Source: an uncultured Acidimicrobiia bacterium (GTDB taxonomy: Bacteria > Actinomycetota > Acidimicrobiia > Acidimicrobiales > AC-14). From it: DNA of 64,000 bases. The stretch is from NCBI GenBank assembly GCA_963836205.1, contig CAWIIV010000008.1, positions 65,685-129,684 of the forward strand, read 5' to 3'. Position 1 is the stretch's first letter. The number at the start of each line of letters is the position of its first letter. Positions 29,415 to 34,491 of the stretch are shown in pieces. The translations under genes were made by a program, and so were the position numbers. Below the pieces are notes generated by a model, which saw nothing but the letters and a program-made list of their open reading frames with translations, made no database searches and was not told where the DNA came from.

Positions 29415-31637
29415 CTACCGGGCCGACGGACGGATGCCTGCACCGTCGGGCTGAGCCGCCCCTCCTGCCGCGGGCCAACCGCCGGCCGCCAGCAGGTCCT
29501 GCTCCCCCAGCGTCCGCCACAGCTCCTCGGCCAGGTGGGGGGCCAGGGGCGCCAGCATCTGCACGAGGGCGCGGACGCCGACGGCCAGGGCTCGCCCGTC
29601 GTCCGCAGCGAGGTGGTCGGAGCGCCGGCGGGCGGCGGTGTCGAACTGCTGGAGCCGGTCGAAGAGGAACCGGAGGTCCTTGGCCACCAGGTGGAAGGCG
29701 TTGCGGTGCATGCCCGCGGTGGCCTTGGCCACGGCCGTCCCCACCCACCCGGCCAGGCTGCGCCGCAGCTTGGAGCTCCCGTCGCCGCCCCCGCCCCCGC
29801 CGCCCGCGCCCGCGGCGGCCGCCAGCTCGCCCTCCCGCTCGGTGACGAACCGCCACACCGCGGTCAGCCACGCCCGCTCCCGCGCCACCGAGGCGGTCGA
29901 CCACTCGAAGTCGCTGGTGGGGCTGGCCGCGGCCAGGACCGCCAGCCGCACCGCGTCGGCCCCATACCGGTCGAGCAGGTCGACGACGCCCACCGAGTTC
30001 CCGGCCGATTTGCTCATCTTCCGGCCGGCGGCCCGGACCATCCCGATGGCGAGCACCTCGTCGATGGGCTCCTCCCGGTCGACCACGCCGAGGGCGGTGA
30101 GCGACCGGGCCATGGTGCGGGCGTGGAAGAAACAGGTCGTGCTCTGCTCGACGCCGCCGACCATGAGGTCGACCGGCTGCCAGAGCCGGGCCTCGCCGTC
30201 GGCGAACGGATCCTCGGCGTCCGGAGCCTTGGCGCTCCACAGGTACCACCACGGGCTGCTGTAGGCACCGAGGGTCTCGGTGTCGCGCCGGGCCGCCCCC
30301 CGGCACGAGGGGCAGGTGGTGGCCACGAAGTCGTCCCGCCCGACGAGGGGGTTGCCGCCGGCGGACAGGTCGACGTCGAGGGGGAGGAGCACCGGCAGCT
30401 CGGAGTCCGGCACCGGTAGGGGACCACACCGGTCGCAGTGGACGACCGGCACCGGCGCCCCCCAGTACCGCTGGCGGGAGAACGGCCAGTCGCCCATCCG
30501 GTAGCGGACGACCGGCTCGACCGCAGCGGTGACGGGCCTTTCGGGCGGGTCGAGCTCCGGACCGGAGGGGTCCCCCGCGCCTGCGCCGAAGGCGGCCAGG
30601 CCCACCTCCCCCGTCCACGGGCTCACCACCACGACCGGGAGCGGTGGGCCGCCGAGCGGGTGGGCCGCGCCCACACCCAAGGCCACGGTGGCGCGGTGGG
30701 CATAGGTGTCGCGGCGGACCTCCCGGTCGAAGCCGCGGGGCTGCGTCCGTCCGAGCTCGGTGACCTGTTGGGCGACGTCGGCGGGCAGGGCGCCGGCATC
30801 GCGGAGGAGGCCGATCAAGGGGTGGTCGGGCGCCACCTCCAGCCGGTCGGCGTCCGCCAGCAGCTCGGGGCGATCGGCGAAGACCTCGACCTCGACGTCG
30901 TAGCCTTCGATCCTCAGCCGGGCCGTCAGCCCCTCGACCCGGCCGACGTAGCGGGCCTGGACGGCCTTCACCGCCTCCGGCCACCGGTCCAGCCCATCGA
31001 GCCCGGCGAGGACGGACTCCGCCCAGACGGTCTCCCGGACGAACCACTGGCTCAGGGGGCGGACCTCGAGGGTTCCCCCGCAGCGCCAGCAGCCGAGGTC
31101 GTCGGCGATCAGGCCGTCCTCCACCGACGACTCGCACCCCGCGCACCAGCTCACGTCGCGCCGGGCCCGGTAGGCGAAGCCACCCTCCAGGAGCCTGGCG
31201 AACACCCATTGGACCCAGCGGTAGAAGCGGGGGTCGCCGTAGTCGGTGATGCGGCGGGTGTCGTGGCTCAGGCCCAACCGGCGGAACTGGGCCGTCATGG
31301 TGACCACGGTGGCGTCGGCCAGGGCCTTGGGGCGGCAGCCGGCGTCGCGGGCGGCGATCTCGTTGGGGAGTCCGTGGGTGTCGAACCCGGTGGTGTAGAG
31401 GACCCGCGCCCCGAGTTGGCGGTGGAAGCGGGCGCTGGCGTCGGCGATGGCGTAGTTCCGGACGTGGCCGAGGTGGAGGGTGCCGTTGGCGAACGGCGGC
31501 AGCTCCATGACGTACCACTTCGGGTCGCCGGGCTCGACGCTGGCCTCGAACACCTTGGCGTCGTCCCACCGCTGCTGCCAGCGGGCCTCGATCTCGCCGA
31601 AGGGGCAGACCCGCCGGTCGTTCTCGGGATTCGTCAT
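29415..31637 (-). CDS. leuS: Leucyl-tRNA synthetase-like protein (740 aa): class I core is intact, editing-site motifs are degenerate, and the Leu-specific and C-terminal tRNA-binding domains are absent
   Basis: HIGH motif as GTLHLGHVRNY. FDTHGLPNE. Zn module CAGC...CWRC. RQRYWGAPVP. KMSKS present. ADRPEL replaces the TTRPDT editing motif and no GTG..AHD.RD motif is present. ATGA overlap with the upstream PLP gene. Confidence 0.85.
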   Translation of the reverse strand: MTNPENDRRVCPFGEIEARWQQRWDDAKVFEASVEPGDPKWYVMELPPFANGTLHLGHVRNYAIADASARFHRQLGARVLYTTGFDTHGLPNEIAARDAGCRPKALADATVVTMTAQFRRLGLSHDTRRITDYGDPRFYRWVQWVFARLLEGGFAYRARRDVSWCAGCESSVEDGLIADDLGCWRCGGTLEVRPLSQWFVRETVWAESVLAGLDGLDRWPEAVKAVQARYVGRVEGLTARLRIEGYDVEVEVFADRPELLADADRLEVAPDHPLIGLLRDAGALPADVAQQVTELGRTQPRGFDREVRRDTYAHRATVALGVGAAHPLGGPPLPVVVVSPWTGEVGLAAFGAGAGDPSGPELDPPERPVTAAVEPVVRYRMGDWPFSRQRYWGAPVPVVHCDRCGPLPVPDSELPVLLPLDVDLSAGGNPLVGRDDFVATTCPSCRGAARRDTETLGAYSSPWWYLWSAKAPDAEDPFADGEARLWQPVDLMVGGVEQSTTCFFHARTMARSLTALGVVDREEPIDEVLAIGMVRAAGRKMSKSAGNSVGVVDLLDRYGADAVRLAVLAAASPTSDFEWSTASVARERAWLTAVWRFVTEREGELAAAAGAGGGGGGGDGSSKLRRSLAGWVGTAVAKATAGMHRNAFHLVAKDLRFLFDRLQQFDTAARRRSDHLAADDGRALAVGVRALVQMLAPLAPHLAEELWRTLGEQDLLAAGGWPAAGGAAQPDGAGIRPSAR

Positions 31638-32880: not shown

Positions 32881-34491
32881 GTGGACGCCCGGGGCATGAT
32901 GTTCGACTTCGGCGACGGGACCCCGCCGGGTGCCGGGTGTGCCCCGCTGGCCCTCGTCGGCGGCTCGCTGCTCGTCGACAGCGGGGAGGAGGACGCCACC
33001 TTCGCCTTCCGCTGCCAGGACCGCTACCTGGCCTATTCGTCCCTCGCCGGGCTGCGTTCGCTGCTCGTGGTCCTCGACGACGACCACGCCGCCACCTACG
33101 ACGGGTGCATCGACGACCTGCGCCGGCGGCTGGCCACCGTTGCCGACAGAACCGGCGTCCTCGGCAACGTGGTCGTCCCCCGACCGCTCTACGTGGGCTT
33201 CGATCCCGTGCGCGGCCATGTCTCGGCGCCGGCGCGGACGGCGGCGGCCCTCCGTGACCCGGACCAGGTGCGATCGCTGCGAGCCGGCATCCTCGCCAAC
33301 CAGATCTCGCCCTCCAGCGCCTCCCTGCTCGCGGCGACGGCCGCCGTCTGCGCCGATGCCGGGGTGAGCGTCGGATGGGACCTCCGGCAAGCCCGGGACC
33401 AGGGAGCCCTGGGGATTCGCCTCCACGACAAGGCAACCTACGTGCAACTGGTCGGCGATGGGCGCCGGGCCGTCGCCCCCCACGTCACCACCGTCGTTCT
33501 CGACTTCGAGGCGGTGGTGGGGGCCGGCAGCTGGTCCGAGCTGTGCGCGTTGGCCGGCCTGCCCGAGGGCACGGCGGCCGTGCACGTGAAGTCGAGCCTC
33601 GACTCGGGCGGGAACGTCGCCGCCGTCGTCTCACCGGCCACCATGCGGGAGACGCTGGCCGCGGTCGAGGCCGAATGGCGGGCCGGCTCCCTCGCCGACG
33701 GGCAAGTCCGGCGGCGGCGGGTGGAGGCGAACCGGCGCAAGCTCGACGCCTGCTGGACCCTCCCCCGCCCGCTCGACCGGGGGCTGGTGGAGGCGGCCGT
33801 CGACCGCCAGGCCGCGGTCCGCGCCAGCCATCCGGTGAGGCTCCTGGTGCAGCCGCGGGTCGACCCCCCGCCGGGAGCGACGGCGGCCAGCATCGGCTGC
33901 TCGTTCGTGGTCGGCACGGACGGGTCGGTGGTTCCCGCCTGTGCCGCCCAGCAGGTGTTCGTCGACGTCGACCGGCGCAAGCACCTGGGCGCCCTGTTGT
34001 CCGACCGCTTCGAGGAGGCCTTCTTCGCTTCGCCCGACGCACCCGGGTTCGCCGCCCTGGCCGACACCGTGGCCGACCTCGGGTACCGGGGCCCGGTCAG
34101 CTTCGACGCCGTCCTCGACGGCGAGGGCCGGTACGTGGGGGTCTTCGACTGCAACCCCCGCCTCACCGCGGTGTTCCCCGCGGTCGCGGTGCGGGAGGCC
34201 CTGCTCGCGGCCGGGGCGCGGTGCGAGACGATCCTGAACCTCGACTACCGGGGCCTGTTCTCCTGGCCCGACCCAGATACCCGCCTGGCCGCCCTCGACG
34301 ACGCCGGCCTCCTGTACACGCGGAAGCGGCAGCGGGGCGTCCTCCCACTGCCGAATCTGGCCCGTCGAGACGGCTTCGACATCCATTTGGTGAACATGCC
34401 GTGGTCGGAGGTGGGACCCCTCGTGAGGAGCGGCCTGCTCGGTGAGGCGGCCGACTTCGACAAGGGGGTCATCCGGGGCCTGTACGCCTGA
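32881..34491 (+). CDS. Divergent ATP-grasp superfamily protein (putative carboxylate-amine/peptide ligase) with a long N-terminal pre-domain
   Basis: 536-aa ORF. P-loop-like AVHVKSSLDSGGNVAAVV. Mg/ATP-site-like GPVSFDAVLDGEGRYVGVFDCNPRLT (D-x-N in place of E-x-N). It resembles PGM1-type peptide-ligase architecture from memory only. Confidence 0.6.
   Translation: MDARGMMFDFGDGTPPGAGCAPLALVGGSLLVDSGEEDATFAFRCQDRYLAYSSLAGLRSLLVVLDDDHAATYDGCIDDLRRRLATVADRTGVLGNVVVPRPLYVGFDPVRGHVSAPARTAAALRDPDQVRSLRAGILANQISPSSASLLAATAAVCADAGVSVGWDLRQARDQGALGIRLHDKATYVQLVGDGRRAVAPHVTTVVLDFEAVVGAGSWSELCALAGLPEGTAAVHVKSSLDSGGNVAAVVSPATMRETLAAVEAEWRAGSLADGQVRRRRVEANRRKLDACWTLPRPLDRGLVEAAVDRQAAVRASHPVRLLVQPRVDPPPGATAASIGCSFVVGTDGSVVPACAAQQVFVDVDRRKHLGALLSDRFEEAFFASPDAPGFAALADTVADLGYRGPVSFDAVLDGEGRYVGVFDCNPRLTAVFPAVAVREALLAAGARCETILNLDYRGLFSWPDPDTRLAALDDAGLLYTRKRQRGVLPLPNLARRDGFDIHLVNMPWSEVGPLVRSGLLGEAADFDKGVIRGLYA

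Follow-up and report, generated by a model that had tools for sequence, protein, structure and literature searches.

The 64,000-nucleotide (nt) stretch analysed here (the window) comes from an uncultured Acidimicrobiia bacterium (GenBank assembly GCA_963836205.1, contig CAWIIV010000008.1, positions 65,685 to 129,684 of the forward strand), and its gene at 29415-31637 encodes a paralogue of leucyl-tRNA synthetase (LeuRS). Conservation and gene context indicate that this gene is the synthetase part of a conserved, horizontally spread cassette with three modules. The incorporation module is the LeuRS-derived synthetase together with a dedicated, outsized tRNA; the target module is a small open reading frame (ORF) rich in CCA codons with a row of short repeats; the chemistry module comprises an ATP-grasp ligase, a class-V-fold pyridoxal 5'-phosphate (PLP) enzyme, an AurF-like oxygenase and an O-methyltransferase-like protein. 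We put an even chance on the synthetase charging the outsized tRNA with a residue that is not proline and is probably non-standard, and on this tRNA inserting the residue at the CCA codons of the small ORF. More tentative, and for us the weaker bet, is the wider proposition that the cassette represents a third kind of natural genetic-code expansion, in which a mobile cassette gives the sense codon CCA a new meaning, confined to one message that it encodes itself.

A LeuRS-derived synthetase with a remodelled pocket

The gene from which the analysis starts is the following.

29415..31637, minus strand: LeuRS-derived class I synthetase paralogue, 740 aa (profiles, alignment, predicted structure)

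Coding frames in the window, whose G+C content is about 72%, were picked by third-position GC (GC3; 0.93-0.96 in the genes treated), and the synthetase frame is intact with a GC3 of 0.95. The original prediction, made from the sequence alone, had described a gene with a preserved catalytic core and a degenerate editing domain, and had proposed alignment to LeuRS structures as a check. Aligned to T. thermophilus (Tt) LeuRS (1h3n), the protein does keep HLGH, RQRYWG, KMSKS and both Zn-Cys clusters, and the editing residues and C-terminal domain are indeed lost. ADRPEL stands where Tt LeuRS has TTRPDT, and the GTG..AHDxRD block is gone, with query residues 354-376 standing for Tt 336-414. The protein stops near Tt residue 807 (of 878) and thus has no C-terminal domain; a frame-shifted remnant of it downstream is impossible because only 130 nt separate the synthetase stop from a convergent gene for a ribosomal protein S18 paralogue. 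The Leu-specific insertion, also reported missing, is absent too (query residues 536-540 stand for Tt 579-637), a loss that is not diagnostic because several canonical LeuRS lack the insertion as well. The poly-Gly stretch noticed in the anticodon-binding domain sits in a length-variable linker of that domain.

The AlphaFold model of the synthetase (predicted local distance difference test, pLDDT, 85) has template modelling (TM) scores of 0.83-0.85 to LeuRS structures; low confidence is limited to the termini, residues 303-307, the deleted editing segment (354-369) and the poly-Gly linker (613-619). AgnB2 is the top Foldseek match by E-value. Against the bacterial LeuRS profile TIGR00396 (leuS_bact), the protein scores 441 bits, under the equivalog cutoff of 548 bits.

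Protein searches recover a clade of paralogues of 594-803 aa, plus one fusion of 1123 aa, with 40-60% identity to the query. Their scores (526-974 bits) are separated by a gap from those of canonical LeuRS (796-886 aa), which reach at most 440 bits at 29-35% identity. The clade is found in Ralstonia, Burkholderia sp. FERM BP-3421, Acidobacteriota, Myxococcota, Gemmataceae and Eremiobacterota, among others, and spans at least seven phyla; the Burkholderia pseudomallei cluster has 370 member sequences, and the Ralstonia solanacearum member lies on a megaplasmid, as an extra copy. Both of these species presumably carry a normal leuS besides the paralogue.

A family alignment of 17 paralogues and nine canonical LeuRS shows how uniform the clade is. 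All 17 lack the TTRPDT motif, the GTG..AHDxRD block with its universal Asp and the C-terminal elbow-binding domain, and all 17 keep HIGH, KMSKS and the Zn sites. The leucine-pocket motif GGxEHAxLHLLYxRF of LeuRS is replaced in the paralogues, and LeuRS-invariant pocket motifs are swapped for others that are themselves invariant among the paralogues:

LeuRS MFPYPSG, in paralogues LPPFA(N)G
LeuRS HPMGWD, in paralogues YTTGFD
LeuRS TF..SSWYYLRY, in paralogues AY.SSPWWYLW
LeuRS YIGGVEHAILHLLYARF, in paralogues M.GG.DQ...CFFH.R

This remodelling is the signature of an active enzyme with an altered substrate, not of a decaying gene or a resistance copy, and the domain losses are a trait of the whole family and not decay of the window gene. 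The truncated, editing-degenerate gene first described is thus real in its losses, which are shared by every member, and the view that it is no housekeeping leuS holds: the paralogue is specialised, and the module to which it belongs is conserved.

A giant tRNA with a structured D-loop arm

With the ATP-grasp protein as marker, 26 cassette loci were collected from one-genome-per-species data. A conserved RNA was spotted among them when one apparent ORF "family" proved to be translated non-coding DNA. In the window, it starts at 34569, 78 nt past the stop of the ATP-grasp gene, where an aberrant tRNA-like gene within 80 nt had been predicted; the position was right, and the element is a complete cloverleaf with an insertion. 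Its parts, all on the plus strand and read from the cloverleaf unless noted, are as follows.

34569..34757, plus strand: dedicated tRNA, 189 nt, with A73 and without an encoded CCA (covariance model, 140 bits; cloverleaf)
34569-34575/34750-34756, plus strand: acceptor stem
34578-34581/34706-34709, plus strand: D-stem
between the D-stem strands, plus strand: D-loop insert, an arm of about 125 nt
34628..34665, plus strand: apical hairpin of the D-loop arm (10-bp stem, 34628-34637/34656-34665)
34638-34655, plus strand: 18-nt apical loop GCUUUUCCAGGGCAUCAA (D-loop arm fold)
34711-34715/34723-34727, plus strand: anticodon stem
34718..34720, plus strand: anticodon TGG (UGG, reads CCA) in the 7-nt loop AUUGGGA (UGG in 37/37 distinct elements)
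34733-34749, plus strand: T-arm, with discriminator A73 at 34757

Copies are 185-198 nt long, beyond the normal 73-95 nt, owing to the structured D-loop arm, the one feature in which they depart from an ordinary tRNA. The consensus has a 7-bp acceptor stem (GCACCUG/CAGGUGC) followed by U8 and A9, a D-stem GCUU...AAGC, and a D-loop that begins AAYYGG, which supplies G18 and G19, before the structured insert. A 5-bp anticodon stem carries the 7-nt loop N-U-UGG-R-N, and a 5-nt variable loop leads to the T-arm (GCGGG-UUCGARU-CCCGU), G73 and an encoded CCA. Cloverleaf pairs are 99.3% formed (21 copies). U33 is as invariant as the UGG anticodon in the distinct copies, and G73-CCA is encoded in 34 of the 37. 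The identity set of bacterial tRNAPro includes C1-G72 and A73; the giant tRNA, with G1-C72 and G73, differs from it.

Each copy folds on its own into a long irregular arm with a covarying closing helix and a 13-20-nt loop carrying CUUUCCAGGGCAUCA. Six base pairs of the apical arm are 90.8% formed (45% in shuffles), and the apical stem has 85 double-change cells and a covariation score of 1.16 against 0.26, a value reached by 0 of 500 shuffles. The arm helices were anchored on the conserved loop motif, since aligning with MAFFT and folding with RNAalifold recovered only the tRNA core; picking the arm register by best pairing introduces a bias, though one far smaller than the signal in the apical stem. 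Over the whole 198-nt stretch, the folding energy is not significant (z = -1.1).

Standard tools pass over the element. ARAGORN calls nothing at 34569-34757, the Rfam tRNA model RF00005 covers only its 3' part in the window at 22 bits (gathering score, 29), and Rfam 15 has no family for it. In one other locus (L022:14447-14531), ARAGORN reports the 3' part of the giant tRNA as an 85-nt "tRNA-Gly(acc)".

A covariance model of the giant tRNA finds one or two copies in each locus that has the synthetase and enough flanking sequence, L010 excepted; the elements of the relative L032 and of the Ralstonia megaplasmid were found although both had been left out of model building. It detects no copy in the Oscillatoria locus L008, which is also without the synthetase. 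The Cyanobium locus L014 shows neither, and its contig ends beside the cassette, which makes it uninformative. A metagenome scan with a pattern for the RNA's 3' end alone retrieved 22 further full-length copies, 20 of them adjoining cassette genes, and on long enough metagenomic contigs the giant tRNA and the synthetase are linked as in genomes. Six other scan matches are five ordinary tRNA-Arg(CCG) or tRNA-Asp genes that share the 3' pattern and one match (L044) without a tRNA call. The ordinary tRNA-Arg(CCG) genes at L060:5849-5924 and L052:1361-1436 have a T-arm and 3' acceptor strand almost identical to those of the giant tRNA, and their 5' acceptor strand, GCGCCUG, is a near match; this likeness may hint at the evolutionary origin of the giant tRNA. 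The notion that the unit is an att (attachment-site) remnant of an integrative element with arm-type repeats was dropped, since in many phyla the tRNA unit is found beside the cassette.

CCA codons of the small ORF

Directly downstream of the tRNA lie a ribosome-binding signal and the small ORF.

34770..34780, plus strand: strong Shine-Dalgarno site AGGAGAGGAGG, 8 nt before the small-ORF start codon (sequence)
34789..35043, plus strand: small Ala/Pro-rich ORF, 84 aa, TTG start (downstream of tRNA and Shine-Dalgarno site)

Across loci, a near-perfect Shine-Dalgarno sequence AAAGGAGGUGAU follows the tRNA by 17-115 nt and precedes an ORF of 81-143 codons, and the Ala/Pro-rich products can be aligned across phyla. 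Their proline codons are far from ordinary. In the window, nine of 11 are CCA, and both CCG codons come directly after a CCA. The 23 small ORFs together hold 400 proline codons, of which 328 are CCA (82%), 57 CCG, 12 CCC and three CCT; in adjacent cassette genes, CCA accounts for 90 of 1792 proline codons (5%), and in the highest-GC hosts for 0 of about 100. Small ORFs found independently in metagenomes repeat the pattern (134/156, 86%). The ORF thus holds on to the cognate codon in the face of strong mutational pressure.

The bias is confined to proline, with nothing comparable for other amino acids, and to the reading frame: CCA trinucleotides number 328 in frame 0 and 23 and 19 in the other two. 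Conserved proline columns of the small-ORF alignment are all CCA, across phyla. The order of codons is constrained as well, in that 64 of the 72 non-CCA proline codons stand directly after a CCA and CCA-CCA occurs 0 times. CCA is the cognate codon of the invariant UGG anticodon in the adjoining tRNA, and we can conceive of no explanation for the codon pattern in which the giant tRNA would not read CCA codons. The link to aminoacyl-tRNA drawn in the original prediction is borne out.

In four Eremiobacterota loci (L005, L018, L025, L029), the tRNA, its small ORF and the repeats have been duplicated in tandem as a whole (e.g., L018:13417-14900). The duplicated ORF copies differ markedly, one of them having a highly repetitive sequence of the AVP(R) type.

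Repeats complementary to the apical loop

Past the small ORF, the window carries short repeats and a hairpin.

35072..35147, plus strand: five tandem repeats of (C/G)UGAUGCCCUGGA, period 13-17 nt (complementarity to the tRNA apical loop)
35150..35179, no strand assigned: perfect 14-bp GC-rich hairpin between the repeats and the convergent SIS-domain gene (sequence)

The repeat sequence UGAUGCCCUGGA and the apical loop of the arm are reverse complements of each other. Four of the window repeats are complementary to the loop over 12-13 nt, and the fifth, GUGAAGCCCUGGAAU, is degenerate, with one mismatch in 13 nt of complementarity to the loop motif (92%). The hairpin is likely the transcript end; a consensus scan for promoters and terminators found nothing in the high-GC DNA of the window.

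One to five such repeats occur 18-97 nt past the stop codon in 21 of the 22 genome units with the ORF (L027 being the exception), and metagenomic units carry 0 to 9. Complementarity to the loop mostly extends over 10-15 nt, with two degenerate copies at 7 nt. Loop and repeats covary, and three variants occur besides the common type:

loop GGGCAUC, repeats GAUGCCC: most loci
loop GGGUAUC, repeats GAUACCC: L011 (4/4), L055 (9/9), L042
loop UCAGGG, repeats CCCUGA: L033 (3/3), L040 (4/4)
loop GGGCGUC, repeats GACGCCC: L041 (2/2), L043

In several mixed cases (L047, L023), loop and repeats are compatible only via G-U pairs, and such cases favour RNA-RNA pairing over a shared DNA-binding site.

The chemistry module and its neighbourhood

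The remaining cassette genes of the window and their possible accessories are listed below.

31634..32803, minus strand: class-V-fold PLP enzyme, 389 aa, GTG start at 32803 (profiles; kept in cassette)
32881..34491, plus strand: ATP-grasp ligase, 536 aa, the best cassette marker gene (AlphaFold, Foldseek)
35198..36256, minus strand: SIS-domain protein, accessory (profiles; only in actinobacterial cassette versions, L006)
36228..37262, minus strand: AurF-like diiron oxygenase, core gene (profiles, synteny)
37250..38206, minus strand: Methyltransf_24 / O-methyltransferase-family-3-like protein, core gene (profiles, synteny)
38291..39439, minus strand: cystathionine gamma-synthase family PLP enzyme, possible accessory (adjoins cassette in L004, L009, L013)

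The arrangement of the first genes is as originally described. The synthetase ATG overlaps the TGA of the upstream PLP gene in an ATGA at 31634-31637, an overlap through which the two genes are predicted to be translationally coupled, and a 77-nt divergent gap (GTG 32803 to 32881) separates the PLP gene start from the 536-aa gene. The solved structures nearest the PLP enzyme are cysteine-desulfurase-like proteins and C-S lyases.

The 536-aa protein has no match in Pfam or NCBIfam profile scans, and a PDB profile search with its family yields only E = 0.05, to PGM1. Its AlphaFold model (pLDDT 93.7) has an ATP-grasp fold, recognised only by structure prediction. Foldseek places the model closest to the peptide ligase PGM1 (3wvq/3wvr) and to 8ynd, a Streptomyces peptide ligase, at 1e-12, with BesA at 1e-9 and biotin carboxylases and PurK ranking below all three. 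The family comprises about 92 clusters (50% identity) at E < 1e-30 among 1.84 billion representatives. The gene had been taken for an orphan ATP-grasp ligase; the fold assignment stands, and the gene is a core member of the cassette, not an orphan. A second tier of proteins (P0187-P0245, 445-594 aa) matches only the C-terminal half of the family profile (about 315-539) and may represent related ligases whose N-terminal domain is of another kind.

The original prediction had also proposed testing whether a small three-gene module is conserved in other genomes. The module is conserved across phyla, and it is larger, with the oxygenase, methyltransferase, tRNA, CCA-rich ORF and repeats besides; the oxygenase and methyltransferase genes of the window lie a short way outside the coordinates first described. 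By tblastn, five genes (LeuRS-like, methyltransferase-like, AurF-like, ATP-grasp and class-V PLP) occur together in nearly every adequately flanked locus. Hosts are Burkholderia, Ramlibacter, Alphaproteobacteria including Hoeflea poritis, Myxococcaceae, Kofleriaceae, Acidobacteriota, Eremiobacterota/Vulcanimicrobiota, an Actinomycetes metagenome-assembled genome and the Ralstonia solanacearum megaplasmid. Genes that often accompany the five are a GGACT-family member, TauD, a further methyltransferase and a cystathionine-gamma-synthase gene, and one metagenomic homologue, P0028, is a synthetase-methyltransferase fusion. The gene inventory of the cassette includes no elongation-factor gene, peptidase, transporter or leader-recognition gene. 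Existing annotations call the cassette genes "leucine--tRNA ligase", "glutathione synthetase" or "hypothetical protein".

In Oscillatoria sp. SIO1A7 (L008:6781-11626), the AurF-like, methyltransferase, PLP and ATP-grasp genes form a single operon, and no synthetase, giant tRNA or small ORF lies within 10 kb of it. This arrangement suggests that the chemistry module can work alone.

The alphaproteobacterial locus L010:7821-12428 carries the synthetase, the ATP-grasp gene, a PLP fragment on the opposite strand and four loop-complementary repeats; no giant tRNA, oxygenase or methyltransferase is detectable there, and the cassette seems to have been rearranged or to have degraded. Ordinary tRNA genes (Lys, Ile and Leu) stand less than 1 kb from the cassette end at L010:12612-12687, L015:13570-13642 and L023:13640-13726, and may mark cassette insertion at tRNA genes.

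Proposed mechanism and points against it

From these sequences we infer who charges the tRNA and with what, the use of the tRNA by the ribosome, loop-repeat pairing in RNA and the roles of the enzymes. The synthetase, with its remodelled pocket and without editing, would charge the giant tRNA, and its lost C-terminal domain would leave room for the arm at the tRNA elbow. Prolyl-tRNA synthetase (ProRS) would be kept off by G1-C72 and G73, given the identity elements that it is known to read. The amino acid would not be proline and would probably be non-standard, made or finished by the four enzymes of the chemistry module. These might build it as a free compound, a route to which the stand-alone Oscillatoria operon and the pairing of ATP-grasp with GGACT point; that pairing recalls the gamma-glutamyl protecting-group logic of the Bes and butirosin pathways. 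Alternatively, they might convert an amino acid on the tRNA, as SelA and SepCysS do, which the synthetase-methyltransferase fusion would fit.

At the message, the arm loop would pair with the repeats and so tether and concentrate the tRNA on its own mRNA, where it would outcompete host tRNAPro at CCA codons. The ban on CCA-CCA might arise, as a speculation, from steric exclusion of two bulky armed tRNAs from adjacent ribosomal sites.

Several points weigh against this scheme. An elbow arm of about 125 nt might not be tolerated by EF-Tu or the ribosome, the cassette inventory holds no dedicated elongation factor, and host tRNAPro(UGG) would compete at CCA codons. Cassette genes of lower-GC hosts do not avoid CCA (L011, L016), so that misreading elsewhere would have to be prevented or tolerated. 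The small ORFs are under only moderate purifying selection, with ratios of nonsynonymous to synonymous polymorphism (pN/pS) of 0.4-0.7, and the pocket changes do not point to a particular amino acid. A shared DNA-binding site could, in principle, also account for the covariation of loop and repeats.

A close relative of the window, L032, adds to these points. It is syntenic across window positions 22000-44398, with 82-88% nucleotide identity over aligned segments. A clean 3.2-kb deletion (L032:7101-7104 against window 29292-32527) takes out the LeuRS-like gene together with four-fifths of the PLP gene, on its 3' side; identity in the tRNA, the small ORF and the repeats is still about 92%, above the 82-88% of the flanks, and the RNA/ORF unit could work without the synthetase. 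Alternatively, the state of L032 may reflect decay after loss of the synthetase or poor assembly: its T-stem reads GCUAG in place of GCGGG, several cassette genes are split and the contig has many broken genes.

Alternative explanations

The alternative that survives best, an unlikely one in our estimation, is that the giant tRNA is a non-ribosomal aminoacyl carrier. It would serve much like a carrier protein: the synthetase would load it, the oxygenase, methyltransferase and PLP enzyme would tailor the bound residue, and the ATP-grasp enzyme would join that residue to a small molecule or to the small-ORF peptide, in the fashion of PGM1 or the peptide aminoacyl-tRNA ligases (PEARLs). The nearness of the ATP-grasp fold to PGM1-type peptide ligases and the existence of the synthetase-methyltransferase fusion both speak for a carrier, as do PvfB and HamC, AurF-like enzymes that act on carrier-tethered amino acids. 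The small ORF could then be a precursor or scaffold, its tandem duplication in Eremiobacterota being like that of many precursor genes. A carrier, however, leaves unexplained the invariant UGG anticodon and tRNAPro-like anticodon loop, the frame-specific CCA bias and the missing CCA-CCA, and the cassette is without a peptidase, transporter or leader-recognition gene. The idea of an ordinary small-molecule pathway, raised in the original prediction, fails at the same place: the match between the adjoining ORF's CCA codons and the tRNA anticodon remains unaccounted for.

Distinctly improbable is a second alternative, in which the RNA is a proline-accepting helper or regulatory tRNA that supplies or gates the reading of rare CCA codons in the small ORF, akin to bldA and TTA, and the LeuRS-like enzyme separately activates an amino acid for a small-molecule product of the four enzymes. 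Its anticodon loop is that of tRNAPro(UGG), CCA is rare in most host genomes, and L032 keeps the RNA/ORF unit without the synthetase. Paralogues of aminoacyl-tRNA synthetases (aaRSs) that activate amino acids independently of tRNA are known in MshC and the MetRS-like hydrazine synthetases (PMC2922099, PMC12376268). The synthetase and the RNA, though, co-occur in all scorable loci save L010 and are both missing from L008, and the arm gained by the RNA sits exactly where the synthetase has lost its elbow-binding domain. The acceptor end, G1-C72 with G73, is unlike the identity set known for bacterial ProRS. Were proline the meaning of both CCA and CCG, moreover, the strict order of CCA before CCG and the conservation of CCA across phyla would be without explanation.

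Very little credence attaches to self-resistance, a possibility raised in the original prediction, in which a resistant or back-up LeuRS would guard the producer of a LeuRS-targeting antibiotic made by the neighbouring enzymes; AgnB2 is such a protein. AgnB2 is the top structural match by E-value, and resistance genes are common among the aaRS paralogues of biosynthetic clusters (PMC9437257), but such a copy must still make Leu-tRNALeu. In every member of the family the leucine-pocket motifs are replaced, editing is lost, and the C-terminal (elbow-binding) domain, which bacterial LeuRS needs to charge tRNALeu, is absent; the window protein scores under the leuS equivalog cutoff, and the tRNA, ORF and repeats would be left over. 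A decaying pseudogene or lineage-specific minimal housekeeping LeuRS, for which the short protein, lost motifs and poly-Gly insert might plead, is scarcely credible in view of the same architecture and invariant replacement motifs across at least seven phyla, the intact frame with GC3 0.95, the confident AlphaFold model and the extra copy on the Ralstonia megaplasmid.

Flanking features of the window

The S18 paralogue that converges on the synthetase gene (28835-29284, plus strand) is a stand-alone protein of 149 aa with a long acidic, Gly-rich C-terminal tail. By tblastn it lies beside the cassette in no other recovered locus, and its position is probably coincidental. Regulators flank the cassette region, a GAF-GAF-SpoIIE-HATPase protein at 39505-41952 (minus strand) and a LuxR/GerE-type protein at 27611-28774 (plus strand), both syntenic in L032. 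Farther off, GC falls to 0.61 over 52001-54000, compared with about 0.72 elsewhere, which may mark a foreign insertion, and a tRNA-Val(GAC) gene lies at 62409-62485 (minus strand).

Relation to known systems

The pyrrolysine cassette (pylT-pylS-pylBCD) is likewise a transferable set of a dedicated tRNA, a synthetase and amino-acid enzymes, one of them an ATP-grasp ligase (PylC). It recodes UAG, whereas the codon here is the sense codon CCA and the function is deduced from sequence; the synthetase here is class I and LeuRS-derived, the target gene lies inside the cassette, and the tRNA has an arm of about 125 nt in its D-loop and complementary sites on the target mRNA. The selenocysteine system (SelC, SelA, SelB and the selenocysteine insertion sequence, SECIS) shares a special tRNA, a PLP enzyme, which there acts on the tRNA-bound amino acid, and an mRNA element that limits recoding to certain messages. 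SECIS, however, is read by a protein factor, SelB, where the present scheme has the tRNA itself pair with the message; UGA is the codon there, and the present cassette has no SelB-like factor.

Transfer-messenger RNA (tmRNA) likewise adds further domains to a tRNA-like core and is large as a result; a synthetase of a standard family charges it, and its bulk does not keep it out of the ribosome. Unlike the giant tRNA, it has no anticodon arm, carries its own reading frame and needs SmpB, whereas here the cloverleaf is full and the ORF lies downstream of the tRNA 3' end. PGM1 and PEARL peptide extension (pheganomycin, 3-thiaglutamate) shares the nearest ATP-grasp fold and a small ribosomal peptide beside amino-acid-handling enzymes, and PEARLs use aminoacyl-tRNA; those pathways differ in drawing on ordinary cellular tRNAs and synthetases and in showing no codon bias.

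Two further comparisons concern synthetase paralogues. ProRSx and tRNAProA of Streptomyces pair an aaRS paralogue with a co-evolved, anomalous tRNA that reads another amino acid's sense codon, and also occur in plant-associated bacteria (PMC9437257). That tRNA differs in being of normal size and in carrying a standard amino acid for proteome-wide decoding (deliberate mistranslation), and the system has no biosynthetic enzymes, dedicated target ORF or docking repeats (PMC9437257). Archaeal LeuRS-I (Sulfolobaceae) and LeuRS2 (Halobacteria) are extra copies with disrupted editing, a divergent or defective C-terminal part and a suspected role outside normal tRNALeu charging; they differ as archaeal-type proteins of a separate clade for which no dedicated tRNA or cassette is known (PMC9437257). 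Of the systems nearest in concept (pyrrolysine, ProRSx/tRNAProA, selenocysteine and tmRNA), none has a tRNA with a structured D-loop arm, base-pair docking on the target mRNA or a co-encoded target gene.

A review of aaRS duplication from 2022 gives only archaeal LeuRS-I and LeuRS2 as LeuRS duplicates (PMC9437257), and a 2010 survey of class-I aaRS-like proteins treats the MetRS paralogue and not the family described here. The cassette, the RNA and a bacterial LeuRS paralogue of this kind are undescribed in Rfam 15 and in the searchable literature, subscription journals lying outside that scope, and the cassette is apparently new.

Significance

Should the ribosome not use the giant tRNA, the cassette would still hold a new structured RNA family tied closely to aaRS and ATP-grasp families that are likewise new, and this in pathogens that have been well studied. 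If the proposed reading is true, many bacterial phyla, including the pathogens Burkholderia pseudomallei and Ralstonia solanacearum, would share a transferable, private translation channel with its own synthetase, a tRNA of its own without structural precedent, a target message of its own and a physical link that ties the tRNA to that message. Sense-codon reassignment restricted to a message would here have its first natural case, resting on a new principle of orthogonality, local recruitment instead of a free codon. Such a cassette would also be a ready set of parts for genetic-code engineering.

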